Source: a virus
Taxonomy: Duplodnaviria; Caudoviricetes
Length of the DNA stretch: 43,279 nt
Direction: 5' to 3' (one strand)
IMG/VR virus record: IMGVR_UViG_3300011102_000065
Location: 1-43,279 of that record
Shown: positions 471 through 38,654 of the stretch, piece after piece
Numbering within the stretch: the stretch's first letter is position 1
Layout: each line of letters opens with the position of its first letter
Translations under genes and position numbers: made by a program
Notes under the pieces: model-generated
Databases searched by the model: none
Told to the model about the DNA's origin: nothing
What the model saw: only the letters and a program-made list of their open reading frames with translations

Positions 471-499
471 AGTATATCATAAGGTAGCACCTATGTCAA
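471..499 (-). promoter_or_regulatory. Sigma70 promoter P1: TTGACA-17-TATACT with extended -10 TG
   Basis: Minus strand reads TTGACA taggtgctaccttatga TATACT, upstream of the leftward early genes. Confidence 0.85.
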
Positions 500-519
500 A
501 CCCAGTACGGCATATGCCT

Positions 520-529
520 TACACGTGTG
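520..529. promoter_or_regulatory. Palindromic box (TACACGTGTG) 20 bp upstream of the P1 -35
   Basis: Same position relative to -35 as at P2, P3 and P4. Confidence 0.7.
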
Positions 530-664
530 CACAAAACTAGAAAGTAATCCCCCCGCCGTGATTTTGCGTGTGCGTGCACGAGTACGGACGTGCAGAAACA
601 CGACAAAACGAATTTTGGGTGCACGAGTAGTGAGGGGCATCGACGGCGGGCACAGGGACACATC

Positions 665-678
665 TGTACACGTGTACA
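665..678. repeat. Perfect 14-bp palindrome TGTACACGTGTACA, type copy of the genome-wide motif
   Basis: The exact 12-mer GTACACGTGTAC is also at 14047, 29006, 35961 and 38638, with many 1-2 mismatch variants. Confidence 0.9.
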
Positions 679-702
679 CACGTGCTCAGCTGGAATTTAG
701 AC

Positions 703-738
703 AAAAAAAAAGCCCCACGGCTTTGTGAGCCATGGGGC
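703..738 (-). terminator. Rho-independent terminator after gene 758-1576
   Basis: GCCCCAUGGCU-CACAA-AGCCGUGGGGC followed by U9 on the minus strand. Confidence 0.9.
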
Positions 739-757
739 AAGGTGTTGTCGGCGTATG

Positions 758-1576
758 TTAGGCTGCGGCGGAACGCTTCGCAGGCACGTTGAACGTTTCG
801 TCGATCCAAGCCTTCACGTCCGTGAAGTCGATCATGCCTCGGTCGTCTGCGAATTTCATTGCAAACACTTCGCGCAGCGTCACCTCAAGGGATTGCTCCA
901 CAGTGTCGTCAAATTCGTCGATGGGCTTGCGCTTGCCGTCCGACGCAAGGCTGGACAGCACGGCAGCCAGAGACTTCGAAGCGTCCGCAATGACGTTGGC
1001 CGCAGGGTTCTTAGCACGCTCCGGCTTGTCCTTGGACGGCTTGCCAAGACGTTCGCGAATAAGCTTATCGCCACGGCCAGCAATCTGATTGCATGAGAAT
1101 GTCTCATTGACATACTCGCCATCGTCTTCTGGATCCGGCATCTTTGCCTTGAGCGCGCCAGTGCCAATCTTGTTTGTGTTGATGCTCTTGCATCCAGCCT
1201 CTCGGAGCCAGAAGACAGACTTCAAAGCACGTTCGAACATGATACGGGCAGCGCGAGCCTTGCGGTTCAAACCTTCCAGCGTGAATGCATCGGCCGTAGT
1301 ACGTTCCTTTGCAGGCTTGTCCTTGATCGACTGCATGTGCGCCAGAACCTTGTCAAAGTCGTCGCTCACCTCGGCAAGCATGTCGTCGATGATCGCCGTC
1401 TTGTCAGCGCCGCTCTTGCTGAACACGTTGGCAATCGCAGCGCTGGAATACGTTGCTTCAGAAGCGAACATTGCCACAACAAGTTCAGCCTGCCGATTGC
1501 CTTCTGTCGTCGCGTCACGCATGACGCCAGAGATGATGTTGGCAATCGGGGAAACGTTGCGAAGGTTGTTAGTCAT
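758..1576 (-). CDS. Hypothetical protein (272 aa) in a stand-alone transcription unit
   Basis: Long ORF with GAGGA RBS, its own promoter (P2) and terminator; no motif recognised. Confidence 0.85.
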   Translation of the reverse strand: MTNNLRNVSPIANIISGVMRDATTEGNRQAELVVAMFASEATYSSAAIANVFSKSGADKTAIIDDMLAEVSDDFDKVLAHMQSIKDKPAKERTTADAFTLEGLNRKARAARIMFERALKSVFWLREAGCKSINTNKIGTGALKAKMPDPEDDGEYVNETFSCNQIAGRGDKLIRERLGKPSKDKPERAKNPAANVIADASKSLAAVLSSLASDGKRKPIDEFDDTVEQSLEVTLREVFAMKFADDRGMIDFTDVKAWIDETFNVPAKRSAAA

Positions 1577-1625
1577 GTCTCATTCCTCACAGTTCGAATG
1601 CATGGTCATCAGTGACCATGCACAA

Positions 1626-1655
1626 ACCATAACACCATATGAGAACACGTGTCAA
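1626..1655 (-). promoter_or_regulatory. Sigma70 promoter P2: TTGACA-18-TATGGT
   Basis: Minus strand reads TTGACA cgtgttctcatatggtgt TATGGT. ACACGTGT overlaps the -35, and TACATGTA lies 20 bp upstream (1676). Confidence 0.7.
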
Positions 1656-2156
1656 GTCACATTCTGCATATGCCGTACATGTATGAACATGTTCGCGAAC
1701 TGTCCTTCACGTGCCGTCACATTCGCACATGTGTGCAGCGCATTCATGCACGTGCTGGGCAGTGACTGATCGTGTCGGACAGTGACTGGCAGCTGAACAT
1801 ATGTACAGGTTTTTCCAAAGTGATGCATGTGGCGAAGGGATGCGCCACCTCCCAGTCACTTGCACGCTCGATCACGTCGTCGTCAACACGAATGCAAATC
1901 GCAACCCCCCTATCCCCCCGCAAATGCAAAAGCGCGGGTGTTGTGTATGCGCGTGCACGTGGGAGTGAGCCACGTCCTCCCACAATCCTCCCCCTCCTTT
2001 ACGACAATGCACACACGTACACGCAGCACAAACATCCGTGCACATACCAAGGTAGCTCATGCGCGTGTACTTATGTGTAGTATATGAGAGTGGTGCGAAT
2101 ACTTAGAAGTGTTGGGGAGTGGGTGGGAGAAGAGGTGTAGATAGTAGATAGAAGAT

Positions 2157-2251
2157 AAAAGAAGGCCCGCGCACTCCTTCGGAGCACGCGGGCTAAGCTC
2201 GGGAGGAAGAAGGGACAGGAGTCGTGGTGACAGTGGAGTAGGTCAAGGTGT
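2157..2251 (-). ncRNA. Putative suhB/MmgR (alpha-r8)-like small RNA with an anti-SD motif; 5' end uncertain
   Basis: CUUCCUCCC-gagcuua, then a 13-bp stem whose G-U pairs fix the minus strand, then UUCUUUU. No ORF to terminate. Candidate -10 TATACT at 2258-2263, or TTGACA at 2311-2316. Confidence 0.55.
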
Positions 2252-2309
2252 CACCATAGTATATGACCCCGTGGCCCTTCCCGACCGAGGGTACTGTTGT
2301 ATATTTATA

Positions 2310-2338
2310 TTGTCAATATATTTATATGGTTGTATACT
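2310..2338 (+). promoter_or_regulatory. Rightward (structural operon) sigma70 promoter TTGTCA-17-TATACT
   Basis: AT-rich block with direct repeat TATATTTATAT (2300-2310, 2317-2327), upstream of the first rightward gene. Confidence 0.65.
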
Positions 2339-2392
2339 ACCTATTCCTACAACCTCTGATTTCTCCTTTATATATAGGGGCTCGTGCGGTCA

Positions 2393-2422
2393 TTGACGCG
2401 GCCTCACACATGTGCGCATACT
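2393..2422 (+). promoter_or_regulatory. Second rightward promoter TTGACG-18-CATACT with a motif copy in the spacer
   Basis: Spacer contains CACACATGTGC; GTGCATGCACATGT (2427-2440) covers the predicted start site. Confidence 0.55.
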
Positions 2423-2477
2423 GTTGGTGCATGCACATGTCGGCGCTGCTTCGGCATGATTTATGGAGACTCCTAAA

Positions 2478-2873
2478 ATGGCTACCTACAGTGGGCTGTG
2501 GAACAACGAGTACGGTGAGAGCTACTCGCTGCTCGGTTCCAACGTGAACATCGGCAACGGTCATACTGCGCTGTCTCGTGTGTTCGCAAATCGTCTGTAC
2601 TCCCGTGGTGCGCTTCGTGAACTGCTGAGTGAACTGCTTGGTGCTTCTGTTGGTGCGACTGCTGTGTCTTCGCATAAGCGCATCAAGGCGGAGCGTGATC
2701 TCGAAGCGAACGTGCTTGGCGGCAAGCGTACCATTGAGACGTTCATCGGCGTTAATCGTCCGACGACTGCGGATGATGTCGCTCTGTTTGACAAAGCGCT
2801 GCATCTGTCGTCTGCACCGAGTTACGTTGGTGATCGCTCCGGCAATGGTGGCGGCGGAAAGCTTGGGTGGTAA
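2478..2873 (+). CDS. Hypothetical protein, first gene of the structural arm (131 aa)
   Basis: GGAG RBS before ATG 2478; ends DRSGNGGGGKLGW. Confidence 0.8.
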   Translation: MATYSGLWNNEYGESYSLLGSNVNIGNGHTALSRVFANRLYSRGALRELLSELLGASVGATAVSSHKRIKAERDLEANVLGGKRTIETFIGVNRPTTADDVALFDKALHLSSAPSYVGDRSGNGGGGKLGW

Positions 2874-2875
2874 TC

Positions 2876-3811
2876 ATGCTGACGACAACTCCTGATCGTG
2901 CCCAGGCGATTGTCGCAGAAGCTCGGAGGCGTCTTGCTGAAATGGGAGGCAAGGCGTCTCAGCTTCCTGCGATGATCCAGCGCGTCACGCAAGAATATGA
3001 GCTATACGACCAGCAAGCGCAGATGTCGGATGGCGGTCATCCACACAACTACCAGATGCCGAACAACATGGATGCATACATCGATGAAGTTCTGCAAATG
3101 TCTGGTATGAAGCCGAAGCCGACCAAGTCTGCTGCTTCTTCACGTGCATCGTCTGATGCGTCTGCAAACCATCCGTCGCCGCCGCGCCGTCCCGCTGCGG
3201 AGGAACCGAAAGGTGAGACTGCTGTTGCAGAGGAAAGCAGTGATGGCGCTACACCGACTACGGAAGGTGGCGGTATCACTGGTAGTGATCTTGCTACTGC
3301 GGCTGGCCTTGTTGGCGGTACTGCTCTATTTTATCATTTGCTGCGTGGAGCCGGACGGACGCCGCAACAGGCGGAAGCTGATGCGCCGCGAACGCCTGTC
3401 GATGAGATGATCGACGCGATTGACGGCAATGATGGAAGCACATCTCGCGCTGTTGCAGTGCGTGGTACTACTGAGCCTGCAAGCGTCGATGCGCCTGGTG
3501 TTGTAAGCGCCGATGCACCTGATCCTCAGAGCCGCATTGATCAGGCATTCGCTATCGATGCTGAGGCACGTAGGGCACTTCCTCCTCCGCAGCGTGCAAT
3601 TCCTGACAAGTCTGCGAACTTCGAAAACACTGCACGTGCTGTTGCGGAAGCGTCTGATCCTGCCGATGCGGTTCGTCGTCTGCGCGAACTTGGTATGGAA
3701 CTGACACAGGATCAGGTTGACGCAATTGCGCGTGACTTCAAGACGCTGAAGGAGCGTGCGGCAAGCGTTGTAGGCCGCGCTGCGGGTGGTGCTGTTCGAA
3801 GGGCGATGTAA
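2876..3811 (+). CDS. Hypothetical Ala/Pro-rich protein (311 aa)
   Basis: Long ORF tightly packed with its neighbours, low-complexity middle, one Gly/Ala-rich hydrophobic segment. Confidence 0.8.
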   Translation: MLTTTPDRAQAIVAEARRRLAEMGGKASQLPAMIQRVTQEYELYDQQAQMSDGGHPHNYQMPNNMDAYIDEVLQMSGMKPKPTKSAASSRASSDASANHPSPPRRPAAEEPKGETAVAEESSDGATPTTEGGGITGSDLATAAGLVGGTALFYHLLRGAGRTPQQAEADAPRTPVDEMIDAIDGNDGSTSRAVAVRGTTEPASVDAPGVVSADAPDPQSRIDQAFAIDAEARRALPPPQRAIPDKSANFENTARAVAEASDPADAVRRLRELGMELTQDQVDAIARDFKTLKERAASVVGRAAGGAVRRAM

Positions 3812-4452
3812 TGCAGATCGTCAAGGGCGAGCCGCTTCGGTTGCCAGACGGAACGATGGTGCTGCCGGAAGCTGATCCAGACTCCGGCAGCAAAGTTGTT
3901 ACTGTGTCTGAGCAGCAAGAAGCGCAGACACGACAAGAGATTGAAAGAGAGTTGACAGATCTCTTGAACAATCCGATGACGAATGAGTTCTCGCAGACGT
4001 ACAAGCGCACTCTTGCAGATGTTGACGTCGAGTTTGCTCGTATGAACGTCATCATGCTCGTGCTGGCGTACACAATGTGGGGCCTCGATTCGTATGCGAT
4101 CAGTCAGTTGCTGAATGTGCGTACCGAACAGGTCGAAGCACTTAAGTCGTCTGACTTGTACAGCAAGACCAGCCAAGAACTGATTGAAGCAATTCGATAC
4201 GCTGAGGCTGCAACTGTACATGGGTACATCGCATCGAAGTCGCTTGCGGCTGCTCGTGTCGTTGCTGCTTCGCTTACAAGTCCTAGCGGCGATCTTCGTC
4301 TCGCTGCTGCCAAAGACATCCTCGATCGTGGCGGGTTCCGTCCTGCTGATCGTGTTGAGCACGTGATGAAGTTCGAGGATGAGCTGCGCATTCGTTACGT
4401 GCAAGACACGACGGATGTGCCTACCATTGATCTTGCTGCGGAGGAACTGTGA
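3811..4452 (+). CDS. Putative terminase small subunit
   Basis: Just upstream of TerL; HTH-like segment (LDSYAISQLLNVRTEQV) and RLAAAKDILDRGG motif typical of TerS-like proteins. Confidence 0.65.
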   Translation: MQIVKGEPLRLPDGTMVLPEADPDSGSKVVTVSEQQEAQTRQEIERELTDLLNNPMTNEFSQTYKRTLADVDVEFARMNVIMLVLAYTMWGLDSYAISQLLNVRTEQVEALKSSDLYSKTSQELIEAIRYAEAATVHGYIASKSLAAARVVAASLTSPSGDLRLAAAKDILDRGGFRPADRVEHVMKFEDELRIRYVQDTTDVPTIDLAAEEL

Positions 4453-4556
4453 TGGCGACGACTACTGACAAGTCTGGTAACGGTACGACCGTTCCCGACG
4501 AACACCTCAAGTCCAAGCTTGAAGAAATCGCTGACAACACGAAGCCGCAGGAGTAA
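4452..4556 (+). CDS. 34-aa microprotein MATTTDKSGNGTTVPDEHLKSKLEEIADNTKPQE
   Basis: TGATG overlap with the TerS stop, GAGGA RBS; fills the gap before TerL. Confidence 0.6.
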   Translation: MATTTDKSGNGTTVPDEHLKSKLEEIADNTKPQE

Positions 4557-4558
4557 TC

Positions 4559-6163
4559 GTGGCTGAGTATCGAATCATCCCCGGTAGCGTGCAGGATCGT
4601 TTCGGCAAGCTACGGACGAAGGTTCAAATTTTCGGCGGTGGCTACGGCAACGGCAAGACTGCTGCTGCCGTAGTCCAAAAAGCTTTGCACGTTGCCAAGT
4701 ACTATCCGGGAGCGAACATCCTGATTGCTCGCTCCACGTATCCGAAGCTGAATGACACAATCCGCAAGGAATTCTTGAAGTGGTGTCCGAAGGCTTGGAT
4801 TAAGTCGTTCCCATTGTCGAAGAATTCCGACAACACGTGTACGCTCACGAATGGAACGACGATCAACTTTCGGTACATCGCCCAGCAAGGTAAGTCAGCA
4901 AGTGCGGAAGATGGCGGACAGACCACATCAAACCTGCTGTCGGCCACGTACGATTTGATCATCGTTGACCAGTTGGAAGACCCGGAGATTACTGAGAAGG
5001 ACTTCAACGACCTTCTCGGTCGTCTTCGTGGTAACGCTCGTTACACCGGCAATGATCCAACGATGCCGCTCACCGGACCACGTTGGTTCATCGCGTGTGT
5101 CAACCCGACACGGAATTGGGTGTATCGGAAGCTGGTTGCTCCGTTGAAGAAGTACGAAGAACACGGTGTGATTGATCCGGCGCTTCTGTGTCTTCGTGAG
5201 CCTGCCGAACTTCCGAACGGACAACCGAACCCGCGAGCGGACGAGCCGATCCTCGACGCAGAAGGTAGGCCGCAGTTGCTCATCTCGCTTGTCGAAGGAT
5301 CGACGTACACGAATGCGCACAACCTCGGTGCAGACTTCATCGCCACACTTGAGAGTGCGTATCGTGGACAGTCCCGTGATCGGTTCCTGTACGGTAAGTG
5401 GGCTGCATACGAAGGTCTCGTGCATCCTGAGTTCGACGAGATTAATAACTGCATCCCACGTGAAGAGATGCTACACTATTACCAGATGATGCTTGGGCAA
5501 GGCATCGTCCCACGCTTCATCGAGGGATACGACTTCGGCATCGTCGAGCCGTGCTGCTACCTGATTGCGTTCGTTGATCGCTTCAAGAACGTGTTCATTG
5601 TCGATGGCTTCTACAAGCCGGAACAGGACTTCGATCTTGAAGAGCAGAAGAAACGCATTTGGGAGATACGGAACGAGCTTGGATGTGAAGACGAGTACAT
5701 CGAAGCCGACCCGTCTGTGTTCAAGCGTACGCAGGTCGTCAAGAATGCTGTCGGCATCAAGACGATTGCAGCGCTCATGAAGGAAGGCACGTACGGTGTG
5801 CGTATGCGTCCAGCAGACAACGAAGTTCTGCGAGGCATTGCGAAGGTCAACATGTACCTCACGCCGAACGATCTTCATCGCCATCCTATTCGAGGAGATC
5901 GTGGCGCACCGCATCTGTACATTGCGACCGAACTTACAGATGTGATCAACGAGTTCACGTCGTATTACTGGAAGGTCGACACAGACGGTTCACGTATCGA
6001 CAGTCCGATCGACAAGAACGATCACGCGATGAACACGATTAAATACATGCTCGCTCGTGAGCCCGATCTTGCAACGCGAGTAAAGCATGCACCGTCAACG
6101 GCTCATCTTACGATGTGGCGTGAGATGCCGGATAATATGAAGAGGTCACGTCGCCATGGCTAA
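4559..6163 (+). CDS. Terminase large subunit
   Basis: Walker A GGYGNGKT, Walker B LIIVDQLED, coupling motif CVNP, RNase H-like nuclease GYDFG / ADPS / NDHAM. Confidence 0.93.
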   Translation: MAEYRIIPGSVQDRFGKLRTKVQIFGGGYGNGKTAAAVVQKALHVAKYYPGANILIARSTYPKLNDTIRKEFLKWCPKAWIKSFPLSKNSDNTCTLTNGTTINFRYIAQQGKSASAEDGGQTTSNLLSATYDLIIVDQLEDPEITEKDFNDLLGRLRGNARYTGNDPTMPLTGPRWFIACVNPTRNWVYRKLVAPLKKYEEHGVIDPALLCLREPAELPNGQPNPRADEPILDAEGRPQLLISLVEGSTYTNAHNLGADFIATLESAYRGQSRDRFLYGKWAAYEGLVHPEFDEINNCIPREEMLHYYQMMLGQGIVPRFIEGYDFGIVEPCCYLIAFVDRFKNVFIVDGFYKPEQDFDLEEQKKRIWEIRNELGCEDEYIEADPSVFKRTQVVKNAVGIKTIAALMKEGTYGVRMRPADNEVLRGIAKVNMYLTPNDLHRHPIRGDRGAPHLYIATELTDVINEFTSYYWKVDTDGSRIDSPIDKNDHAMNTIKYMLAREPDLATRVKHAPSTAHLTMWREMPDNMKRSRRHG

Positions 6164-12206: not shown

Positions 12207-14552
12207 ATGGCTAGATCCCGGCTCGATAGCACGACAATTCGCGACTTCGGTGGCGGCTGGAACGTGAGTGACAGTGATCTCAACTTGAACTCACGCTACC
12301 AACCGATCAGTGACAACGTTGTGCGCGGAATTGATGGCTCATTGACTGTTCGGCACGGAATGAGCCTTCATGCCGACTTCAAAACAGGCACAGAGACTGT
12401 GCGTGAAGGATCGCACACGTTTAGTGTTGTGACCGGTAGTGCGCACGTTGATATCGTAGTGACTGGTCATGGGCTTTCCTCGGGTGATCACGTTACTGTG
12501 GTCGGTGCTGTGGCTATCGGCGGGATTCCTGCTAGCGATATCAATCGAACACATTCGGTTCTGGTGATCGACGCTGATACGCTGCGTGTGTACACACGTA
12601 CACTAGCGACGTCTACGGACTCCGCGTCGGTGGTCACGAAGCTCACGCTCGACGACCATCTGCTTGCTGGCAACATCATCCACAATCAGTACTTCAACCG
12701 CCGATTGCTCCTGTTCACGGATATCGGTGAGGTTGGCACTGCGGATGATAGCGGTAACATCGAACGCATTTGGGGCACAGCAGAAGCGGAAGCGCTAACG
12801 CCGGGGCTCGTTCCCACACGTTGGTGCGATCACTGGTCGAGTACGACATTCAAATCTACCGTGATCGCGTGCAACGGATACGACAAAGACAAGCCGATCC
12901 AAATCAAGGACGACTTCACTGTCGAATTCCTTGTGGACAAGGCGACTAACTCTAACGCGGCTGTGCCTCGTGCAGATTATGTCGTGGCGCTGCAAGGATA
13001 CGTCGTGTTCATTCGTACTGAGTACGGCGACCCGTTCGTCGAAATTAGTGCGAGGGGAACTGATGGCACGTTCACACGTGATACCAATCCCGCAGATGCT
13101 GTCGAAGTTGACTTGTCAATGATCACGGCGTCTGTGGAGCCTGTTTTGCTCGGTGCCGCACCTATTCGTGAGAAGTTGTACACAGCGTTCTATGATGCTG
13201 GCATGATCGGTGCACTCGGCATCTATGACAACAACGGCAAGCACACACCAGACTTTAGTGACACGATTTCTGAGAACGGAACCGTGTCGCATCGCACGAT
13301 GGTTCCGCTCGGTAACGACGTCTTCATGTGTGACTACGCTGGCGTGCCTTCGGTCACGATCTCGCAACAGTCTGGTATCTATGTTCCTGTGCGGCTGTCT
13401 GAGCTAATCGCTCCGGCTATTCAGGCGCACTTGAGTGCTCTGACTGCTGACACGCTACGTACGAAGGCGTTCGCTGTGTTCAATCGCAACGACCGCACGT
13501 ACATGTTGTTCCTGCCGATCTATGAGGAAGTCGCTCGTACAGCGCTTGAAGATCCGTTCATCTTCAACGACGATCTTCGTGCAAAGAACTGGGCCATCGT
13601 CCGCGCACCAGAGCATCGTCTGTTCGCGCAGTCGAACATTGTCGTCTCAGGTGCTACGGACATTGGCGATCTACCTGCGTCGAGCATCAACGGGCGTCGT
13701 CGTGTTGTCAGTGTGATCGACAAGGATACGTTCGTCATCGAGCTTGGCGGTGCTCCTACGTCAACCGACACTACGTCTGGTGGTGGGAACAGCGTTACGA
13801 TCACGCCTGTGAATGATGAGACACTTGTGTACGTGTTCGAGTACAACAAGGAATTTAAAATTCGTAGGTGGACACGTTATCGTGGATGGAACTTCGATTG
13901 CGCATGCTCGTCGCAACGTGGCAAGGTCTTCATGGCGAAGGGCCTCAAGGTCTACCGCATGGGAGACAACGAAGTTCCGTTGCACGCTGACTTCGTCAAT
14001 GACTACGACCATCGCGTGTGGAAAAACTCGACGCTGTACGAGGCCGGTACACGTGTACGAGACACTGATGGCACTGTCTACCGGGCACTTGTGACGCACA
14101 CAAGTGATGCTACAGGCACGTTCCGTGACTATCGGGATGCGCACCTAAATGATTGGGAAGTGTATCCCGGTGAGCCGATCAATTGGGAAGTCGAGACACC
14201 ATGGTCGGACATGCGCACACGTGGGCGCAACAAGATCAACAAGTATATCAGCATCGACAGCGAAGGTTATGACCGCTTCACTGTTAGTGCGTTCGTCAAC
14301 AAGATCAGGAACAAGCCGACAACGAACGAACTCATCCCATATCGATCGCTCGACTTCCAAGCAGGCGACACCGGTGGTTGGGGCATACAGAACTCAGGTA
14401 ACTGGGGTGGCGGCAGGCGCACACGCGAAGAAAAGGTGTGGCCGTTTTCTGTGCGTGGCAAGCTCATTCGCTGGCGCTATTCCGGTAGCACAACGAAGCG
14501 TGTTCGCATCATCTCGCACACAATGTACTACATGCTAGGAAACATCCGATGA
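12207..14552 (+). CDS. Tail nozzle / hub (tail tubular B- or P22 gp10-like) with inserted modules
   Basis: Starts RDFGGGWN; beta-propeller-like composition; 781 aa after the adaptor. Confidence 0.7.
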   Translation: MARSRLDSTTIRDFGGGWNVSDSDLNLNSRYQPISDNVVRGIDGSLTVRHGMSLHADFKTGTETVREGSHTFSVVTGSAHVDIVVTGHGLSSGDHVTVVGAVAIGGIPASDINRTHSVLVIDADTLRVYTRTLATSTDSASVVTKLTLDDHLLAGNIIHNQYFNRRLLLFTDIGEVGTADDSGNIERIWGTAEAEALTPGLVPTRWCDHWSSTTFKSTVIACNGYDKDKPIQIKDDFTVEFLVDKATNSNAAVPRADYVVALQGYVVFIRTEYGDPFVEISARGTDGTFTRDTNPADAVEVDLSMITASVEPVLLGAAPIREKLYTAFYDAGMIGALGIYDNNGKHTPDFSDTISENGTVSHRTMVPLGNDVFMCDYAGVPSVTISQQSGIYVPVRLSELIAPAIQAHLSALTADTLRTKAFAVFNRNDRTYMLFLPIYEEVARTALEDPFIFNDDLRAKNWAIVRAPEHRLFAQSNIVVSGATDIGDLPASSINGRRRVVSVIDKDTFVIELGGAPTSTDTTSGGGNSVTITPVNDETLVYVFEYNKEFKIRRWTRYRGWNFDCACSSQRGKVFMAKGLKVYRMGDNEVPLHADFVNDYDHRVWKNSTLYEAGTRVRDTDGTVYRALVTHTSDATGTFRDYRDAHLNDWEVYPGEPINWEVETPWSDMRTRGRNKINKYISIDSEGYDRFTVSAFVNKIRNKPTTNELIPYRSLDFQAGDTGGWGIQNSGNWGGGRRTREEKVWPFSVRGKLIRWRYSGSTTKRVRIISHTMYYMLGNIR

Positions 14553-27746: not shown

Positions 27747-30272
27747 TCACGATGCGCACTCCACCTCTACCGGCTTCAACGTGCTCCAACGGATGATGCC
27801 CTTGTCATCGGGATAACCCATCTTCGTCTCAGCGGGGATGATGAGTGGGCGGATTTTTCCGTCCATCCCAAGAATGTTGATAGGTGCCTCGGCGTACTTC
27901 TTCATGATCGACAAGCACAGCTTGACCTTGTGCCTGGGTGCCAGACAAATGAGCGCATCGTGGATGTTGAGCCACATGCGAGCATCAGCGGGCCACCTCG
28001 GATCACTTTCCGACTGATAAATAACTCGCACAACGTGGTCGCCAAGGGTTGACTGCGGCTTGAACGCGACTATACTTTCCAAAGCCTCCGGCGAGAGACG
28101 TTCCAGAACGATGAACCGCCTACCGAACGCATTATAAAGGGTCTTGGTACGACGCACTTCGTCTTCCAGAGCGGCCCACCACTTTTGAAGTTCAGGAGTG
28201 ATCCGATGGTACGCCCTGTAAGCATTCGTAGCCTCCGTCAGAGAAAGGCCAGTCGTACTCGACAGACGATCCGGCTGCATCCGGTAGTTCAGCCCGTGTC
28301 GGCACCGCTTCGCGATGAACCGAAGCGTGACGTCTCGATCTCGTTTGCCTTCGGGGATCACATGTCCCTTGCTGGCATCGTAGCGGTCGAAGGTCGGAAC
28401 CTCGTCATACGGGATACCGAACATTTCGGACGCCAGCGCACGGTGAGCATCGAAACCGCCATCCGTACGGGCCTTCTCAAACTGCTCCATCCATGATTCG
28501 ATGACAGCAAACCAACCGACTAGGCGTGCTTCGGCCTGAGCCATGTCGAAGTAGCCTAGTCCATAGCCGGGGTCCGCGATGTACATCTCGTATGCGCGTT
28601 CCGGCTGGTTCTGTAGGTTCATGCCCGTCTGTTCGCCATCGGAGTTCCTCCACAGCATACCGCTCGACGAGAGGCGGCCTGGGGCGGACTGAACCCCTGT
28701 CTGGTTGTAGGTGCACCTCAGCCTCCCATCGTCGTCTATGGCGGTCGTGACATACGTGGAGTAGAACTTCTGCTCCTTCGTGTACTCGTCGAGTGCCCGC
28801 AACACCTTGCGCTTTTCTTCCGTTGTCGCAGGATGTGCGTACATACGTGCACGGTTCTCTGCGTCCGTCTGTGTGCCTCGACCGACGAGACGGAGCTTCG
28901 TGAACAGAAGCTCGCTCATCTGCTTCGGGGACTTTGGATTAGGCTCGTAGTCCTCGATGCCAGTGACTTCCTGCACGATCTTGTGGAAGTCTTCAAGAAG
29001 TTGGTGTACACGTGTACCGATTCTGTCCTTGAGTTCGTTTCGCACCTCCTGATCCACAAGCACGCCACCGACGACCATACGCAACAGGTGTGGCTGTGCT
29101 CTCATCACATGTCCAAAGAAGAATTCATCGAGCTTCTGTTGCTTGAGCTCGCTGACTACAGCAGTCGCAACTGCATGCGTATTGCAGCAGTCTTGTCCGT
29201 TGTATCGCCAGAAGCTATCGATGTCACCACCTTCTCGCCACTCATCTTTCTCGTCCTTGTAGAACGGACGAGTTGTGTACTGCGTAGTGAGGTATCCAAG
29301 ACTGTGCGGCAGCTGAGGATACAGCACATGGTGGGCAAGCATCGTGTCACACCAAATTGGTGGGACATAAATCTTGTCCTTGTACCACAACCAAGACGAG
29401 TCGAACATGTTGTTCTGCGCAACCATACGATCATGGATGCGTCTGACCATTTGTTGAAAGCGCAGTCTCAGCTTGATCTCTTGCTCAAGCGTGTATCGGT
29501 TCTCAGATAGCGTACGGAAGTTGATGCACATCGCTTCGATGTCGTTGTCAGCGAGACCGATGCACGCAGTCTCGTTGGCAATGACTTCGATATCGTACGC
29601 AACGTGACTGGACGAGTCTTCCATACGCTTCATCCAATCCATCGCGTCGTCAAACGACGGATTGATGTGCGTGCTCAAAGGCTTCTGTGACCAATTGCCG
29701 TCGAGCACCTTCTTGAGCTTAGCAAGATCAAACGTGAACGTGAGTTCGAGCTTCGGCTCACGCAGGATCATCGCAGGATTATACGTGCAAACAGTCGTAA
29801 CACGAGTACCAATTCCTTTATTGCGTTCGGAAGGCAGCAGTACACTACCCCGCCAGTTAGTAATTCCTGTGTGTCCTGTGATCGCTTCCAACGACATGTT
29901 TCCGAGGACAAGCACGTACTTGAGGTTGGGGAGTTGTGAAAGTTCCCATTGGAGCAACGACTTCCAAACCTCGAATTCGTGTTTGTTGATCGGCATTCGC
30001 TTGTCATTGCCGAAGCTCACTTGTCGTTTGGCTACGTTGGTGACGTAGACGTTGCGTCTGTCTATGCCGTACTTCCGCAACACTTCCCACAGTTTAGCAC
30101 CGCTACCTCCAACAAGAGGACGGCCTGTCTCTACCTCACGATCGCCGGGAGCCTCAGCAACGACTGCAAGCTCCGCATGAAAGGCTCCATCTGAAGCACA
30201 CTGCACCTCTAACCCTGCGGTACGTGCTTGCTTGATGAATGCTTCTTTCAATTCTGCGGTTGAGTTGATCAT
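27747..30272 (-). CDS. polA: Family A DNA polymerase with N-terminal UDG family 4-like domain and 3'-5' exonuclease
   Basis: UDG-like AEAPG..E...GRPLVG..G / YVTN; ExoI YDIE, ExoII NNMFD, ExoIII YNGQD; PGRLSS; motif A DMAQAEAR, motif B RFIAKRCRHGLNY, motif C IHDA. Confidence 0.93.
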   Translation of the reverse strand: MINSTAELKEAFIKQARTAGLEVQCASDGAFHAELAVVAEAPGDREVETGRPLVGGSGAKLWEVLRKYGIDRRNVYVTNVAKRQVSFGNDKRMPINKHEFEVWKSLLQWELSQLPNLKYVLVLGNMSLEAITGHTGITNWRGSVLLPSERNKGIGTRVTTVCTYNPAMILREPKLELTFTFDLAKLKKVLDGNWSQKPLSTHINPSFDDAMDWMKRMEDSSSHVAYDIEVIANETACIGLADNDIEAMCINFRTLSENRYTLEQEIKLRLRFQQMVRRIHDRMVAQNNMFDSSWLWYKDKIYVPPIWCDTMLAHHVLYPQLPHSLGYLTTQYTTRPFYKDEKDEWREGGDIDSFWRYNGQDCCNTHAVATAVVSELKQQKLDEFFFGHVMRAQPHLLRMVVGGVLVDQEVRNELKDRIGTRVHQLLEDFHKIVQEVTGIEDYEPNPKSPKQMSELLFTKLRLVGRGTQTDAENRARMYAHPATTEEKRKVLRALDEYTKEQKFYSTYVTTAIDDDGRLRCTYNQTGVQSAPGRLSSSGMLWRNSDGEQTGMNLQNQPERAYEMYIADPGYGLGYFDMAQAEARLVGWFAVIESWMEQFEKARTDGGFDAHRALASEMFGIPYDEVPTFDRYDASKGHVIPEGKRDRDVTLRFIAKRCRHGLNYRMQPDRLSSTTGLSLTEATNAYRAYHRITPELQKWWAALEDEVRRTKTLYNAFGRRFIVLERLSPEALESIVAFKPQSTLGDHVVRVIYQSESDPRWPADARMWLNIHDALICLAPRHKVKLCLSIMKKYAEAPINILGMDGKIRPLIIPAETKMGYPDDKGIIRWSTLKPVEVECAS

Positions 30273-32131: not shown

Positions 32132-32157
32132 TTTGCTCTCCGGTCTAAAACGCAAGA

Positions 32158-32195
32158 AACCCCTAGCAGCCGTCGGAAAGAAGCTGCTAGGGGTT
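32158..32195 (-). terminator. Terminator-like hairpin after the RHH gene
   Basis: 13-bp stem AACCCCTAGCAGC / GCTGCTAGGGGTT followed by UCUUGCGUUUU on the minus strand. Confidence 0.65.
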
Positions 32196-32227
32196 CTATG
32201 CGAGGGAAGTACATCAAGCCTGTGAGG

Positions 32228-32500
32228 TCACTTGCTGCGCTTCGCCTCGTATTCTTTGTGCTGTCGGAGGATGTCGAGTGCGACGTTGTATGCACACCAA
32301 GACATAAACGCAGAACGAGACATGCCTAGGAGTGACGCCGCCTCGTCAACCGCTTCCAGCACATGAGGCTGTAGGCGAATAGAACGAGTAGGCTGTTGGT
32401 CACGTGGCGAGGACGATCCACGAGGGACAACGCTCGGCATGGGACGAACGATTGTGACCGTCTCTCTCACGTGTGCGTTGAATTCGGGATCGTATGCCAC
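32228..32500 (-). CDS. Ribbon-helix-helix (CopG/Arc-like) DNA-binding protein
   Basis: TRSIRL (beta strand) QPHVLEAVDEAASLLG (helix A) MSRSAFMSW (helix B; G-x-S-R-S turn). GTG start with AGGAGG RBS. Confidence 0.75.
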   Translation of the reverse strand: MAYDPEFNAHVRETVTIVRPMPSVVPRGSSSPRDQQPTRSIRLQPHVLEAVDEAASLLGMSRSAFMSWCAYNVALDILRQHKEYEAKRSK

Positions 32501-32515
32501 GTGATCCTCCTTGCC

Positions 32516-32746: not shown

Positions 32747-32785
32747 GTCTATCTCCTATGGTTGGCTGGTTTCAGAGAGCAAGTG

Positions 32786-32825
32786 AAAAGTAGCACAGGG
32801 GTCACACTTTGGCAACCCCTATGCT
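32786..32825 (-). terminator. Terminator after the SSB-like gene
   Basis: AGCAUAGGGGU...ACCCCUGUGCU followed by ACUUUUC on the minus strand. Confidence 0.6.
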
Positions 32826-32839
32826 GTGGAAAAGTCGAA

Positions 32840-33259: not shown

Positions 33260-33364
33260 GATTATCTCCTGCATGCATATGGAGTGAGGTGGCTACTTTA
33301 CACATGTACAAGGTACTACACAAGCCACTAAATGTAGTACCCTGCAACGAGATGCCCCCCATAA

Positions 33365-34186
33365 CTAGGTCGGCATATCGATCTTGTTGAAGTCTGCTGC
33401 ACGCCAACGTTCAAACCACGTGTCGATGCGCATAGACTTGTTCTTTTCGTCATCCCAATTGTCGGGATCGAACTTCCAGACGAACTCCGTCTTGTCCGTG
33501 ACCTTGAACATGCGAGACTTGGCAGGATCACGCATGCGGGACTTGCGACAGATGATGACCTTCTCGTTCTTGGACGTCTCAAACATCGGCCACACTTCAT
33601 TGATGCGCAGCGATGCCTGAGATGGAAGCTGTCCACCGAGAGACATGGTGTACCCAAGAAGAGCACCGTCATCATTCGTCTGCGGCGGTCCTTCATGGGC
33701 GATGAAGCACACGTGTTTATTCGCTTTCGCTGTGATCTGCAACACGTTGCGGATCAGATTGATTGCGAGGTTGTTACGTGCCATGTACGCACCGGGAGAC
33801 GGGCGTTCAATGGTTGCACCCTTCGTCACTTCGATACCACGAGCAAGCGTACGCTCGGTTACCGACGTAAGGCTGTCGAAGATGTACGTGTCGAAGTGAT
33901 CGAGTGTCTTCTCAATGCCGAACGGATCACGATCCTTGAGCCGAGAAAAGAACGCATCATCCTTACCAGCTAGATCGAAGACGCGCACCTCACCACTAGT
34001 GATGAGTTTCTTCGGCACAGACGCGGGACCATCAGGATCGAAGTTAATCAGCGCTTTCCTGCCTGGCATCGTGCATGCCAGCGTCGTCTTACCAAGTCCT
34101 GCTGGTGCCCAAATCAGGCATGACAAGCGCTCAACTGGTGTGTCTGCCGCTGCGACACCACCAATCATGATATCAGCGTTACTCAT
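33365..34186 (-). CDS. AAA_24 / Sak4-like ATPase (recombinase)
   Basis: Walker A APAGLGKT, Walker B YIFDSLT, FIAHE; start moved to ATG 34186. Confidence 0.8.
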   Translation of the reverse strand: MSNADIMIGGVAAADTPVERLSCLIWAPAGLGKTTLACTMPGRKALINFDPDGPASVPKKLITSGEVRVFDLAGKDDAFFSRLKDRDPFGIEKTLDHFDTYIFDSLTSVTERTLARGIEVTKGATIERPSPGAYMARNNLAINLIRNVLQITAKANKHVCFIAHEGPPQTNDDGALLGYTMSLGGQLPSQASLRINEVWPMFETSKNEKVIICRKSRMRDPAKSRMFKVTDKTEFVWKFDPDNWDDEKNKSMRIDTWFERWRAADFNKIDMPT

Positions 34187-35324
34187 CTGTAAACTCCCCT
34201 GCGGTGTGGAGAGGACTCCACTCTTGTACATCCATCTCTTCGAACATCTGCTTACGTTCTTCTGGATCGGCTGCACAAAGAGGAATGAAGGAACACGGAC
34301 GGAAGTATCTGTTACATGAGTGAGTGTACATAGGTGCATCGGTTGGCTGATGCACGTACTGCTCATGCAACATTGCTGTATGCAGTAGCCAAGAGAACCA
34401 TTCTTGCAGCTGCCACAGCTTGCGCTTGACGACAACGCGAGACAAGCCGTTGATCGTGTACGCTTTCGGCAGAGGCAAGCACGTGCCAAGCATCAGCGCT
34501 TGTGTGATTTGCTTGCCGAGCATCGCAGACAACGCAATCATGTAGCCAGTCGGCTGGTGATTGGTCTCCCACGACATTTCCCAAGCATCGCCAAGTCGGG
34601 ACGCCGTCTTGTTTTCGTGTACGCGAAGTTCCTGTTTGTCTCGATCGACGTAGTGGATGCCGTCTGCCTTACCGATGAAACGGATGAGTGCGGTGTTGTA
34701 ATTGCACTTACCACGTTCGTACGTGATGTGGATGACTACATCGACAGGGATTTCTACGCCTAAGAAGTCCTCACCATCCCAATATGGGAGCTGTGACTTC
34801 CAGTCGTACTTATCCATGTACGCGATACACATCTCTTCTATGTTGGTGATTGTCCGTCGTTTGTCTCCGGGATCATCGTAAAATCCACAGTTATATAGAG
34901 CCGTGAGCGAGAATTGTTGGCATCGAGTTCGATAATCTTCTCGTTCATCAACCTCTGCAAGCATTTCGCGAAAGCGTCTTTCGCCAAAGATACGTGTTCC
35001 GTTCGAAACAAACGCAGCCTCGATACGTTCTTGTGGTGCGTCGTAGAATACCGATCCGTATTCGCGATACGAATAGAGTCTATGCGCAGCGAAGACTTCA
35101 TGTGCCGCACCTCCCGCCTCCAGCGCCATGGAGCGGCCCATGCCACCCATAAACTTGTGATGTGTGTAGCGCACGATGCCCCACAGTGGACACGTGTTGA
35201 TGGCTACGAGCTTCGTGTTGTCGAACGTGGGAAGTTGGTCAATTGGTGGGCCGAACCAGTCACGAAACTTATGTGACGAGTACTGGTGTGAAGGGACCAC
35301 CTCTACCTTGGTGATCCTCATCAT
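34179..35324 (-). CDS. PD-(D/E)XK exonuclease, Cas4/AddB-like with a probable Fe-S staple
   Basis: N-terminal TCP, GKADG...HENKT, QPTGY, and C-terminal C-x6-C-x5-C. Confidence 0.8.
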   Translation of the reverse strand: MMRITKVEVVPSHQYSSHKFRDWFGPPIDQLPTFDNTKLVAINTCPLWGIVRYTHHKFMGGMGRSMALEAGGAAHEVFAAHRLYSYREYGSVFYDAPQERIEAAFVSNGTRIFGERRFREMLAEVDEREDYRTRCQQFSLTALYNCGFYDDPGDKRRTITNIEEMCIAYMDKYDWKSQLPYWDGEDFLGVEIPVDVVIHITYERGKCNYNTALIRFIGKADGIHYVDRDKQELRVHENKTASRLGDAWEMSWETNHQPTGYMIALSAMLGKQITQALMLGTCLPLPKAYTINGLSRVVVKRKLWQLQEWFSWLLHTAMLHEQYVHQPTDAPMYTHSCNRYFRPCSFIPLCAADPEERKQMFEEMDVQEWSPLHTAGEFTDE

Positions 35325-35587
35325 TCTTCCTTGTCAAGCGCGTTCGTATTCGGCCCAAGCAACTCAGCTTCGGCAGGGTTTTGCATTCCTTCGATGGTGT
35401 CTTTCATGCGACCGGCAACAGCGACGACGCCTTGCATGCTGTTCACCAACTCGTCGAAGTATGTTGCTAGCTCACGCAAGTCACGCTGCTGCTGAATGAT
35501 CTTCTCATTCATTGCTTCCATGCAGTAGACAGCGCCGCGCTCGAAGCCCATAGCCTTGACGCGCTCACGGATTTCACGAGTTTTCAT
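35321..35587 (-). CDS. Hypothetical coiled-coil protein (88 aa)
   Basis: AGGT RBS; ATGA overlap with the nuclease gene. Confidence 0.7.
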   Translation of the reverse strand: MKTREIRERVKAMGFERGAVYCMEAMNEKIIQQQRDLRELATYFDELVNSMQGVVAVAGRMKDTIEGMQNPAEAELLGPNTNALDKEE

Positions 35588-35615
35588 GTCACTACCTATT
35601 CAAGCGTGAAGACTA

Positions 35616-35948
35616 TCACAAGAATTCCATGCCAGCCTGAAGACGAAGACCACGAAGCTCCGCAATCTGATGCTCAAGTTTCTCAAGTGCTTTGTCAGAT
35701 GCGTTGAGCGTCTTGATAATCTGTTCGCACTTCTTTTCGATCTTGGCACGGACCTTGTCTTGAGCGAGCTTATCCTTCTCAGCCTTTGTCTGCTTGTAGA
35801 TCAGGTACATGTTCATCCGACGAGTGCGGATAGCTGAGACGAGTGCGTCAAGTTCCTCGTCCGTCATCGCCTCGATGTCTTTCATCGTGATGAACTCAGG
35901 CACAGTCGGCTTTCGCTGACCTTCGAGCCTGACCACGTTGTCGGTCAT
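35616..35948 (-). CDS. Hypothetical coiled-coil protein (110 aa)
   Basis: Start MTDNVVRLEG at 35948; AGGAG RBS preceded by GTACACGTGTAC. Confidence 0.75.
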   Translation of the reverse strand: MTDNVVRLEGQRKPTVPEFITMKDIEAMTDEELDALVSAIRTRRMNMYLIYKQTKAEKDKLAQDKVRAKIEKKCEQIIKTLNASDKALEKLEHQIAELRGLRLQAGMEFL

Positions 35949-36152
35949 CCATAAGCTCCTGTACACGTGTACGGATGTTGTGTTTGGGAAGCACATGTGT
36001 GCAGCAGGAAGGAATAAGAATGATCGCACACACGGAAAGTCAGATACGTGATCACATCGGTGTATCGTGTGCAAGGGCACACGATCTATACATATGTGCA
36101 GAGCACATAAGAATATATGTATATATCTCCTTGTCCTCTTACTACTCGTAAG

Positions 36153-36181
36153 AGTATAACAACAAAACACATTGCTGTCAA
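36153..36181 (-). promoter_or_regulatory. Sigma70 promoter P3: TTGACA-17-TATACT (replication/recombination operon)
   Basis: Minus strand reads TTGACA gcaatgtgttttgttgt TATACT; box TGTACTCGTGTACA at 36200-36213. Confidence 0.88.
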
Positions 36182-36249
36182 GTCACATCTTCGTGTGTCT
36201 GTACTCGTGTACATAAGTCATGCCAAGGTGCTGCTTACAGAGGCGCACA

Positions 36250-36275
36250 CCGACCTGCACACGTGTACAGGTCGG
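36250..36275. repeat. Inverted repeat with the palindromic motif at its apex
   Basis: CCGACCTG-CACACGTGTA-CAGGTCGG; no U tract. Confidence 0.7.
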
Positions 36276-36301
36276 CGCGCTTGTGGTGTCACCTAGGCTG
36301 A

Positions 36302-36595
36302 TTAGTACGGAATCTCATCATCAATGATCGGCGTCTGCTCTTCGTCGATAGCCTTGGCCTTGTCTTCGTACGTGATCGCGGGCAGAACAGACGCAGTCTC
36401 CAACGACGTCATAATCTTCTGTCGATGACGTTCGAGCAAACCATTGGCTACGAGCTTGAGTTCATGAATTGCACGCTCATCCAACTGAATCATCGTCGAC
36501 GCACTGGTCTCGTCATCATCGACGGTGATGTAGCCAGACGGAAGGCTGTGAAAACTATACTGCGACATAGCCACTGCTCTAAGAAACGTTGCCAT
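36302..36595 (-). CDS. Hypothetical protein ending in an SSB-like acidic tip (DDEIPY)
   Basis: GGAGG RBS; the C-terminus resembles the DDDIPF interaction tail of bacterial SSB. Confidence 0.7.
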   Translation of the reverse strand: MATFLRAVAMSQYSFHSLPSGYITVDDDETSASTMIQLDERAIHELKLVANGLLERHRQKIMTSLETASVLPAITYEDKAKAIDEEQTPIIDDEIPY

Positions 36596-36619
36596 GTTAG
36601 TTCCTCCATTGTACTCGTG

Positions 36620-37561
36620 TTACGCAGCAAGCTGGAACAGCGTGTCCCGATCCTGCATGATGCGACGAACCTGCTGCTCTCGGCTGAACAAGGTTGCTGC
36701 GGTGTGATCGTTGCCAGTATTGCGTACGCCAAACTGTCCTTCGGCATGCGAAGAGTAGTATGTCATCGCAGAGAACACGGCCCACAACGTGCGACCACGT
36801 GAAGCAGCTTCGATGAGATACTGCCGATGCAGTCGCGCACCAAGTCGCTCACCGAAGCGATCTTCGAACCACTTCTGCACGTGATCGTCGTCGAGAACCT
36901 TGCGCCGTCCGAGTTCTTCGAACAGCTCACGGTTCTTCCAGAACACTTGTACGCTGCTTTCGACAGCCTGAGAGAACTTCGAGAGTTCGAGCCCCTTCGT
37001 GTGCTTGGCATACGTACTTATGTAATCACCGATCACAATACCGTTCGTGCAGAAGAAGTCGATGGCACCCGCGAGCAGCTTGATCGCACCCGTACCAAAG
37101 CCGTTCTGAATGACGATGCGAAATGCGATCTTCTCACGCTCCGGCGATGCGAATGCGATGTTCGGGAACACGTATTCACGGAAGCACATGGCACCGAAGT
37201 ACGACACCTTGTCACGAACGAGCATCGTCTTGAAGTCATCCGCATCGAGCGTCTTGAGCATCGCACCGTGGATCGTCTCAAACAGCTCGTCGTTCTGCAC
37301 GACCTTGTACGTATCACGCACAACGTTGAGCGTGACAGGTGCGCCTTCCCAAACACGTACAAGCGCCTTGTACTTCGTGTTACTATATTCCGTCCCGTCG
37401 CGGCCTTTGTAGTACAGTGGACGCTCATACGCGGTGAACGCGAGCGGGGAATGCTGTGCGAGGTGAGCGAAATCGTCGTCCCCTTGCACATGTGTGAAGC
37501 CGCGAAGTGCAGCGTTGCCAGCGGGAACAGGGTTAGATGGCGGCATTGTAATCAGCGTCAT
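36620..37561 (-). CDS. DUF932-family protein
   Basis: YKVVQNDELF...QNGFG...FFCTNGIV...KHT...RTLWAVFSAMTYYSSH pattern. Confidence 0.75.
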   Translation of the reverse strand: MTLITMPPSNPVPAGNAALRGFTHVQGDDDFAHLAQHSPLAFTAYERPLYYKGRDGTEYSNTKYKALVRVWEGAPVTLNVVRDTYKVVQNDELFETIHGAMLKTLDADDFKTMLVRDKVSYFGAMCFREYVFPNIAFASPEREKIAFRIVIQNGFGTGAIKLLAGAIDFFCTNGIVIGDYISTYAKHTKGLELSKFSQAVESSVQVFWKNRELFEELGRRKVLDDDHVQKWFEDRFGERLGARLHRQYLIEAASRGRTLWAVFSAMTYYSSHAEGQFGVRNTGNDHTAATLFSREQQVRRIMQDRDTLFQLAA

Positions 37562-37929
37562 CTTAGTTCTCCGTCTCTTCCTCGACGTAGAAGGTTTCTG
37601 AGAGTTTCGAGTTCAGCAACGGTGTAACTCATGATGAGTTCCCTCGTCGCTGTGACTACGCTTTTGTCGTTGGGAACGACGCGACTTGCGTAATCAGCAT
37701 GATCGTCGCTGATCGTCAAGCACACTCGGTTGTTGTTCAGAAGTTCGATGGTGAACGTGAAGTCAGCATCGAGGATTTCTTGTGCACGTTGGAGCAGTGC
37801 TTCATCGTACGAAGGATCGATCGTCCACGATGTTTCCTTAGCTCCGTGCGGTCGAATGTATTGCACGAAAGGAATTGCGCGGATGACCTTTCGATTGTTG
37901 AGTCCTTCAAAGGACTTGGGCTTGTTCAT
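37558..37929 (-). CDS. Hypothetical protein (123 aa)
   Basis: ATGA overlaps at both ends; start MNKPKS at 37929. Confidence 0.7.
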   Translation of the reverse strand: MNKPKSFEGLNNRKVIRAIPFVQYIRPHGAKETSWTIDPSYDEALLQRAQEILDADFTFTIELLNNNRVCLTISDDHADYASRVVPNDKSVVTATRELIMSYTVAELETLRNLLRRGRDGELR

Positions 37930-38381
37930 AGCTCCACTACCTGCCAAGATTGAGAGGGATCACGACGAAGCGTGCAGCTTTCGATGAGCGCATCCACTTC
38001 GGTTGCGTCCATCTTGTAATCACGCATGAGCCGAACCTTGAGCGTCGCCACATCAAAGTACGATGCACCGTTCTTGATATCGACGTTCAGCGTGTAGTGG
38101 TCGGACTCCACGAGTGCACACGTGTTCGCAACGCGGCTCTTGGATACGTCATCCACGACCTTCTTGAGCTTCGACAGCTGCACATCAGTGAGTTGCTTGT
38201 TGAGTTCCTTCTTCGCGTTATCACGGCGCTTCTTGAAGTATGACTCTCCAAGCGTCGCGACATAGTATTCATGCAGGTACGGCACGATCGGATCCTGCGA
38301 TTGCGGGCACGCATGACCGTTCGTGTTACCGACCTTGTCGAGCGACGCAAACAACGCTTGTTTCACCGTCTTTGTGGACAT
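37926..38381 (-). CDS. Hypothetical protein (151 aa)
   Basis: AAGGA RBS; genome-typical codons. Confidence 0.75.
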   Translation of the reverse strand: MSTKTVKQALFASLDKVGNTNGHACPQSQDPIVPYLHEYYVATLGESYFKKRRDNAKKELNKQLTDVQLSKLKKVVDDVSKSRVANTCALVESDHYTLNVDIKNGASYFDVATLKVRLMRDYKMDATEVDALIESCTLRRDPSQSWQVVEL

Positions 38382-38577
38382 ACTTATATCCTTTCCCGTC
38401 TTTCTCGCATTGATCGATCATCTCCACACGCGCGGTGGCTCTCTCGCGCCTGTCGAGGTCTGCAACACTGTACTCGTGTGAAGATTTGTTGTTCATCCAT
38501 GCGACGAGGATGAACACAGCATAGATAAGAACCGTGATGACTATCTCAGGGTCCGGCACGTAATCGGGGTCTCTCAC
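38326..38577 (-). CDS. Small membrane protein (83 aa), first gene after P4
   Basis: AGGAGG RBS, GTG start, TM segment IVITVLIYAVFILVAW. Confidence 0.65.
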   Translation of the reverse strand: MRDPDYVPDPEIVITVLIYAVFILVAWMNNKSSHEYSVADLDRRERATARVEMIDQCEKDGKGYKYVHKDGETSVVCVARQGR

Positions 38578-38589
38578 GATTACCTCCTA

Positions 38590-38618
38590 AGTATATCATA
38601 GCGTGACACCTTGGTCAA
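38590..38618 (-). promoter_or_regulatory. Sigma70 promoter P4: TTGACC-17-TATACT with extended -10 TG
   Basis: Minus strand reads TTGACC aaggtgtcacgctatga TATACT; box GTACACGTGTACA at 38638-38650. Confidence 0.85.
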
Positions 38619-38654
38619 GTTGTGTAAGCGATACGCCGTACACGTGTACACAAG

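Follow-up and report, generated by a model that had tools for sequence, protein, structure and literature searches.

How are genes timed in a phage that lacks an RNA polymerase of its own and a CI-type repressor, a question that is mostly unanswered, and what could a palindromic box that recurs at one distance upstream of its early promoters contribute? We asked this of IMGVR_UViG_3300011102_000065, the complete IMG/VR record of an uncultured 43-kb phage with direct terminal repeats (123-nt overlap); its entire 43,279 nucleotides are referred to here as the window. According to the annotation of the window, the rightward genes encode terminase, portal, capsid and tail proteins, and the leftward genes a family A polymerase, a helicase, a Sak4-like protein, an exonuclease and many small early proteins. 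Among the 54 open reading frames (ORFs), compared with PHROGs, no RNA polymerase, sigma factor or CI was recognised, as the initial annotation had stated, and neither was an integrase or partition gene, many ORFs being without annotation. We propose, at what we judge to be even chances, that the box serves as operator for a dimeric DNA-binding protein which the phage encodes and which would damp predicted host-sigma70 early promoters from both sides.

All promoters were predicted from sequence, with +1 placed from the −10 element, and the box was scored as the 12-bp palindrome GTACA-NN-TGTAC. The scanner calls all four leftward sigma70 promoters on which the initial annotation was built (P1 to P4, predicted, 10–11/12 with TG), and the four strings described there are present exactly at 494–529, 1650–1685, 36176–36211 and 38613–38648, each with a 20-nt gap. 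A palindromic box was reported at all four; this holds for P4, P3 and P1 (0, 1 and 2 mismatches), where the centre lies at −60.5, as expected from the −60/−61 given earlier, and fails for P2 (3 mismatches). The promoters and their neighbouring boxes are as follows.

471–499, minus strand: P1, predicted sigma70 promoter from the promoter scan (TTGACA-17-TATACT, with TG)
519–530: box at −60.5 of P1, 2 mismatches
400–411: box at +59.5 of P1, 1 mismatch; the downstream site (+58.5) is retained in the relative L277
574–585: second upstream box of P1, at −115.5, 2 mismatches
666–677: perfect box between P1 and the terminator of ORF 758–1576
1626–1655, minus strand: P2, predicted promoter of the first gene
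1675–1686: degenerate P2 box with an unchanged offset; the half nearer the promoter is perfect and all 3 mismatches fall in the far half
1795–1806: box farther upstream of P2, 1 mismatch
36153–36181, minus strand: P3, predicted promoter of the replication operon
36201–36212: box at −60.5 of P3, 1 mismatch
36088–36099: P3 box centred at +53.5 with 2 mismatches; its distance to the −60.5 box is 113 bp
36257–36268: P3 box centred at −116.5 with 1 mismatch; it lies at the tip of a 16-bp stem
35961–35972: perfect box just ahead of the ribosome-binding site that serves the first gene behind P3
38590–38618, minus strand: P4, predicted promoter, a copy of the P1 cassette
38638–38649: perfect box at −60.5 of P4

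Given the number of upstream sites, the sharing of one offset by three promoters has a P of 0.0013, or 0.021 if the duplicates P1 and P4 are taken as one event. These two cassettes are indeed duplicated, with 37/64 flank positions identical (58%, P = 7.5e-8), compared to 52% for P1/P2, 18/64 for P1/P3 and 19/64 for P3/P4. Because 200 places in the genome match the palindrome at ≤3 mismatches, we regard the P2 box, and likewise the variants at 2393–2422 considered below, as background. P2 has a perfect 8-bp core at 1645–1652 that overlaps its −35 element, with 3 mismatches in the 12-mer at that place. Among the matches listed, the similarity of strains about 90% alike stops upstream of P2 at 1679–1689, at the box, and a loose end in run X2 would turn the P2 box into a 1-mismatch site. 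At P4, an AGGAGG ribosome site (38577–38590) directly follows the −10 element; the P4 transcript would start inside it. The 83-residue ORF there would need read-through from upstream.

The box is not limited to promoters, and the motif spans the genome. The window holds 5 perfect copies of the 12-bp palindrome, 16 at ≤1 mismatch and 56 at ≤2. Its core ACACGTGT occurs 19 times versus 1.6 expected (reversed control, 2). Within the 46 coding sequences ACACGTGT is found 10 times, compared to a mean of 1.3 and a maximum of 5 in 300 synonymous shuffles, and synonymous codons are used to form it at 10 of the 18 places that the proteins permit. A reading confined to promoters is thus incomplete, since the core excess also sits in coding sequences through codon choice. 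Coding-region sites include:

14047–14058: perfect box within a late gene
4216, 12590, 29006, 33026, 36941 and 41395: further coding-region boxes

Could the copies then be the sites of a protein that organizes, protects or positions the genome, similar to parS or NBS, with promoter flanks used merely as free DNA and the common gap spread by cassette copying? The CACGTG core resembles parS, and selection for the motif extends to late genes (0.3 sites/kb). The flank identities of P1/P4 (58%) and P1/P2 (52%) are in keeping with such copying, and cassette shuffling of the PeSL type is described in PMC2839356. We nevertheless regard this explanation as improbable, because promoter flanks are 4–7 times denser in sites than other intergenic DNA, and because no ParB-like protein was recognised in PHROGs and Pfam scans.

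If the box is read by one protein, related phages should inform on it. The capsid protein matches cultured phages at 29% at best (phage collection) and has 530 matches in IMG/VR, the best 80 of which are 71–95% identical. We compared 44 family contigs including the window genome, after removal of G054 as non-family, and masked 130 bp upstream of every predicted promoter in the motif scan. A palindrome of the form 5-N1/2-5 reached a corrected p<0.05 in 22/44 genomes; 21 were used, G003 being left out (AT run) and GTACA being taken for the window genome, where it tied with an AT run. About nine half-sites were obtained (GTACA, TAACA, TGACA, CAACA, CTACA, TTACA, TTATA, CAACG and TTAAT), and G002 has a looser related palindrome in 21 copies. 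In all 13 lineage representatives the perfect own motif is more frequent in long ORFs than the synonymous-shuffle mean, and in 10 of them none of 100 shuffles reached the observed count. The operator-type motif is lineage-specific, as the motifs of other lineages are missing from both promoter-flank windows. A two-fold site that changes its sequence between lineages and keeps its geometry suggests a dimeric phage protein. Operators of phage repressors likewise differ in half-site between lineages.

An IMG/VR-wide scan for core, gap and promoter returned 67 matches, 4 of them with the gap of the window genome, and no family protein was found in the flanks of these 4. Rows linked to the family have gaps of 15 and 31, plus one weak row at 20 that is linked by HNH only. 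Two further patterns were seen. An unrelated phage group (L208, L218, L219, L222, L227, L231, L233, L248, L257, L261 and L272) shows two TTGAC elements in a conserved tandem arrangement, the first of which is overlapped by the same 8-bp core, and the whole contig G040 has a strong excess of several 3-N5-3 inverted pairs, perhaps a repeat array.

Where do the sites lie relative to early promoters? The position set comprised 34 promoters from 12 lineages, with one genome per lineage and own-motif sites at ≤1 mismatch; G013 was dropped, its sole promoter call falling within the polymerase gene. Eight own-motif sites lie at −71..−54 (0.48 expected from genome density), 14 at +37..+95 (1.58 expected) and 8 at −135..−72 (1.71 expected), and the core from −53 to +36 contains 1 (2.41 expected). 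Foreign-lineage motifs have no site at −71..−54 or +37..+95. Compared with other intergenic DNA, −71..−54 is still enriched (8 vs. 1.1 expected, P = 2e-5; 2 of the 8 are from the window genome) and the core is depleted (P = 0.026). The densities are 13.1 sites/kb upstream, 7.3 further upstream, 7.0 downstream, 0.33 in the core, 1.83 in other intergenic DNA and 0.3–0.5 in coding DNA. The sites cluster at about −62 and +55, and a looser promoter rule reproduces both peaks. In 16 genomes without a motif, 450 promoter-by-motif trials yielded 4 matches downstream and none upstream. The proposal that one DNA-binding protein reads the box is therefore probably correct, own-motif sites being enriched at −71..−54 in the relatives too.

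The fixed phase fared differently. A 20-nt spacing conserved among relatives had been anticipated, and a box at −60.5 is present at 0/43 promoters of relatives. Their upstream centres are at −54.5, −56.5, −58.5, −62.5, −67.5, −70.5, −80 and beyond, to −126.5, and helical phase is not significant over 16 upstream sites in 12 lineages (Rayleigh p 0.20–0.23). In one clade, two promoters whose flanks are similar both have a site at −62.5. Among relatives with an equivalent of P1, the nearest is L277, which keeps the +58.5 box and has only one half-site at −60.5. The identical 20-nt gap appears to be a trait of the window lineage, spread in part by copying of promoter cassettes.

The initial annotation took the position near −60 to imply class I activation, in which a protein bound at −60.5 would bring in RNA polymerase by way of the C-terminal domain of its alpha subunit and possibly also block from downstream sites. 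We consider this unlikely, although it has evidence on its side. The centre is at −60.5 in 3/4 predicted promoters of the window, near the −61.5 class, −71..−54 is the densest site class, G026, L282 and the G033 clade have sites at −70.5, −73.5 and −62.5, respectively, and P3 and P4 share their offset despite only 19/64 identical flank positions. Passages of PMC4132738 place CRP action near −61.5, −71.5, −82.5 and −92.5 and describe a relaxation of the spacing rule by an extended −10 element; since 29/34 promoters have TG, the loose spacing is compatible with activation. On the other hand, passages of PMC4693257 describe repression by E. coli GalR from −60.5, either by that site itself or with a loop to +53.5 over 113 bp. 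As CRP activates near −61.5 and GalR represses from −60.5, position does not give the sign of control. The promoters are near-consensus (10–11/12 plus TG) and would gain little from recruitment, and judged by sequence their cores are not of the weak, activator-dependent kind. The centres −54.5, −56.5 and −67.5 do not fit the helical phase (Rayleigh p ~0.2). Boxes are more numerous downstream of +1 than upstream, and activation leaves the 14 downstream sites and the coding sites unexplained.

The late-promoter half of the proposed early/late switch is not supported either. Box variants were said to cover a rightward promoter and thereby to hold late transcription off. The best of them has 3 mismatches, which is the background level. 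Sixteen motif genomes had DNA before the first late gene, 7 of them with a called promoter; in the 6 relatives among these, a box at ≤2 mismatches over the called late promoter was found in 0/6. Of the activator switch, one likely reader and the upstream enrichment stand, and the fixed phase and the late-promoter coverage do not. The rightward candidates are:

2310–2338, plus strand: better candidate for the late promoter, TTGTCA-17-TATACT, 10/12
2393–2422, plus strand: rightward promoter proposed in the initial annotation, 9/12

A promoter of the form seen at 2310–2338 also precedes the first late gene of 4 relatives. The 2310–2338 site lies in an AT-rich palindromic stretch of the divergent region (2280–2345), which may be an origin or packaging signal.

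Three points lead us to favour damping: the promoters are close to consensus, sites are more numerous downstream than upstream, and those in coding DNA fit a roadblock and not an activator. From an upstream site a phage protein would repress by polymerase contact or a short loop, and from downstream and coding sites by roadblock; we infer both its binding at the box and its phage rather than host origin. The product of the first early gene could be this reader, sparing its own promoter (upstream sites only). First-gene promoters have an upstream site in 7/8 cases and a downstream site in 0/8, compared to 6/26 and 13/26 for other promoters (Fisher, 0.002 and 0.013), with P2 of the window genome as an exception; promoters with upstream sites only are as expected if the product spares itself. 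The features relevant to the reader are:

758–1576, minus strand: first early gene, 272 residues, with its own promoter and terminator; candidate reader
712–738, minus strand: terminator-like hairpin ending the first-gene unit
38948–39406, minus strand: HNH protein with a C-terminal helix-turn-helix (HTH)-like tail, family-wide; second candidate reader
32228–32500, minus strand: ribbon-helix-helix (RHH) protein; weaker candidate reader

ORF 758–1576 is our best candidate, at somewhat less than even odds, and stays a lead because no candidate co-varies with the motif. The gene is a stand-alone unit and its family is often basic (median pI 8.8, 100 homologues), with three groups, two of them clearly homologous (hhalign 96%). 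Searches for close relatives found none in viral contigs and 1 in metagenomes. No Pfam or PHROG family was recognised among 98 members except for 3 stray Pfam matches, and ORF 758–1576 has no match in cultured phages and no PDB sequence match below E 0.018. Its structure model is confident (pLDDT 92); the full-length model gave no Foldseek match at E≤0.001, and the best VIA Z of 7.3–7.5, with domains folded together, was to plain helical hairpins, so that the protein may still have a known fold. It was rejected as a homologue of phiC31 c in the absence of profile similarity (hhalign E 0.12–0.18), and an Atlas lead to a known repressor family scored 0.78–0.79, which is chance level. The HNH-HTH protein occupies the same place in 22/23 near-complete relatives, unlike a mobile homing endonuclease, and is possibly domesticated. 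Among 13 near-complete motif genomes, the HNH-HTH gene is present in all, the RHH gene in 8 (missing in 5) and the first-gene family in 12 by profile, the last having a similar-sized ORF at that place. A Pfam scan of 98 small early proteins of the relatives and the window revealed no shared regulator and one LuxR-type HTH, in G004.

Several observations weigh against the proposal of a damping phage protein. Classical repressors overlap the core, and the boxes avoid it; the promoters are predicted, and binding and regulation are deduced from sequence. The windows were chosen after the positions had been seen, the upstream density of 13.1/kb is not clearly above the 7.3/kb of non-coding DNA further upstream, and downstream sites are no tighter than their window permits (standard deviation 12.8 relative to +1). 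At ≤1 mismatch only 2/34 promoters are flanked by sites on both sides, and the 9 pair distances at ≤2 mismatches (113, 119, 134, 157.5, 113, 122, 113, 111 and 142) are partly off-phase. More free DNA ahead of the first gene may explain the asymmetry of its promoters. No significant motif is present in 7/19 near-complete genomes with a recognised first gene, and members of all three candidate families are found in genomes without the motif as well. CAACA and TTACA reappear across different groups of the first gene, and no candidate co-varies with the motif in a Mantel test (HNH 0.07; RHH 0.29, p = 0.07), for which the first-gene family is too divergent. Over 8 protein sets only the protein resembling single-stranded DNA-binding protein reached p = 0.008, or ~0.06 corrected, which is likely due to kinship.

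Could a host transcription factor or nucleoid protein read the box instead, with motifs that differ as the hosts differ? GANTC is depleted in the window genome (64 vs. 160), and passages of PMC7139368 give GANTC as the CcrM site of Alphaproteobacteria; on these grounds the host is likely to be an alphaproteobacterium. A host reader would agree with the recurrence of the same half-site in distant phage clades and the lack of a co-varying phage protein, and some motif-free members show no GANTC depletion, a hint of other hosts. We think this quite improbable, since about nine half-sites in one phage family exceed the variation that is usual for a conserved host regulator; in addition, the sole family match among 3 genome-contig loci (73%) is a contig of a metagenome-assembled genome. 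This contig, L274, is a capsid relative in a genome labelled Thioalkalispiraceae and may be mis-binned. GANTC is fully absent from the whole contigs G011 and G013 (0 vs. 115 and 37 expected) and not depleted in G008, G009 and G012.

Least probable is an RNA element whose copies pair in leaders as processing or translation-control stems. The leaders of P1 (z = −2.2) and P3 (z = −2.4) and the stem at 36240–36300 (z = −4.2) show folding, and there is a modest excess of sites 20–29 nt before start codons. The equivalent leader of L277 lacks the fold (z = +1.7), and no predicted transcript covers the sites upstream of first-gene promoters. The 16-bp stem itself (36245–36280, z = −4.2) directly follows the stop of ORF 36302–36595, upstream of P3.

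In the literature covered, which included few subscription papers, we found no description of the motif or the phage family. The family A DNA polymerase of the window (27747–30272, minus strand) has a uracil-DNA glycosylase domain at its N terminus (Pfam UDG, E 6e-16).

What would such a regulator mean? In a bolder version, which we regard as unlikely, this would be a large, apparently virulent family of uncultured podoviruses whose first-gene regulator, of unrecognised fold, maintains its own expression from an upstream site, acts on the other early promoters by looping or blocking from −60/+55 pairs and coats the genome at sites fixed in genes through codon choice, providing a timer and a lineage-specific immunity code. 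If true, genes would be timed without RNA polymerase, sigma factor or CI through a private, fast-evolving 12-bp operator. The family supplies natural sets in which operator variants are matched with candidate readers, and these are usable without the phage itself. Such a reader would also be of use as an orthogonal regulator if its fold is new and its 12-bp specificity can be swapped.

Known systems resemble the window phage in part. Its P3 boxes have the same −60.5 and +53.5 positions, 113 bp apart, as those described for GalR in the passages cited above. In contrast to the GalR spacings of ~103, 113, 123 and 133 bp, only some family promoters have pairs and their distances vary; no LacI-family protein was recognised in the window phage, and looping is only proposed. 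A site centre near −61 or −71 is shared with CRP class I promoters, as far as the cited passages describe them, whereas the promoters here are near-consensus, no significant helical phase is seen across lineages and many sites lie downstream. T4-type PeSLs (PMC2839356) are likewise strong early promoters in repeated, modular form, which copying can multiply inside one genome, but they carry a terminator stem-loop and not a lineage-specific operator that recurs in genes.

The closest parallels are dispersed-operator regulons. In phiC31 the repressor is c, which acts at dispersed inverted repeats (CIRs), and the same palindrome scan recovers in that genome a 15-copy palindrome of the same geometry. 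The likeness extends to ~15 copies over a 41-kb genome, the 5-N2-5 form, the CACGTG core and a stand-alone early gene as candidate reader; phiC31 differs in being temperate with an integrase, none being recognised in the window phage, and in its longer, nearly invariant site. Stoperators of mycobacteriophage L5 and P1 C1 operators are dispersed operators of one phage protein. Dispersed stoperators are also described for D29 in passages of PMC12266134. As in L5/D29 and P1, where one phage protein has many dispersed operators, sites are found near promoters and within transcripts; those operators are asymmetric and overlap promoters or gene junctions, whereas the boxes of the window are palindromes that stay clear of the core and that synonymous codon choice preserves within genes. 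Membership in this class is not shown, for want of a homologous repressor and of any sign of lysogeny, yet the window phage may work like these regulons, and it shares with phiC31, P1 and L5 many copies in and between genes and a lineage-specific operator.

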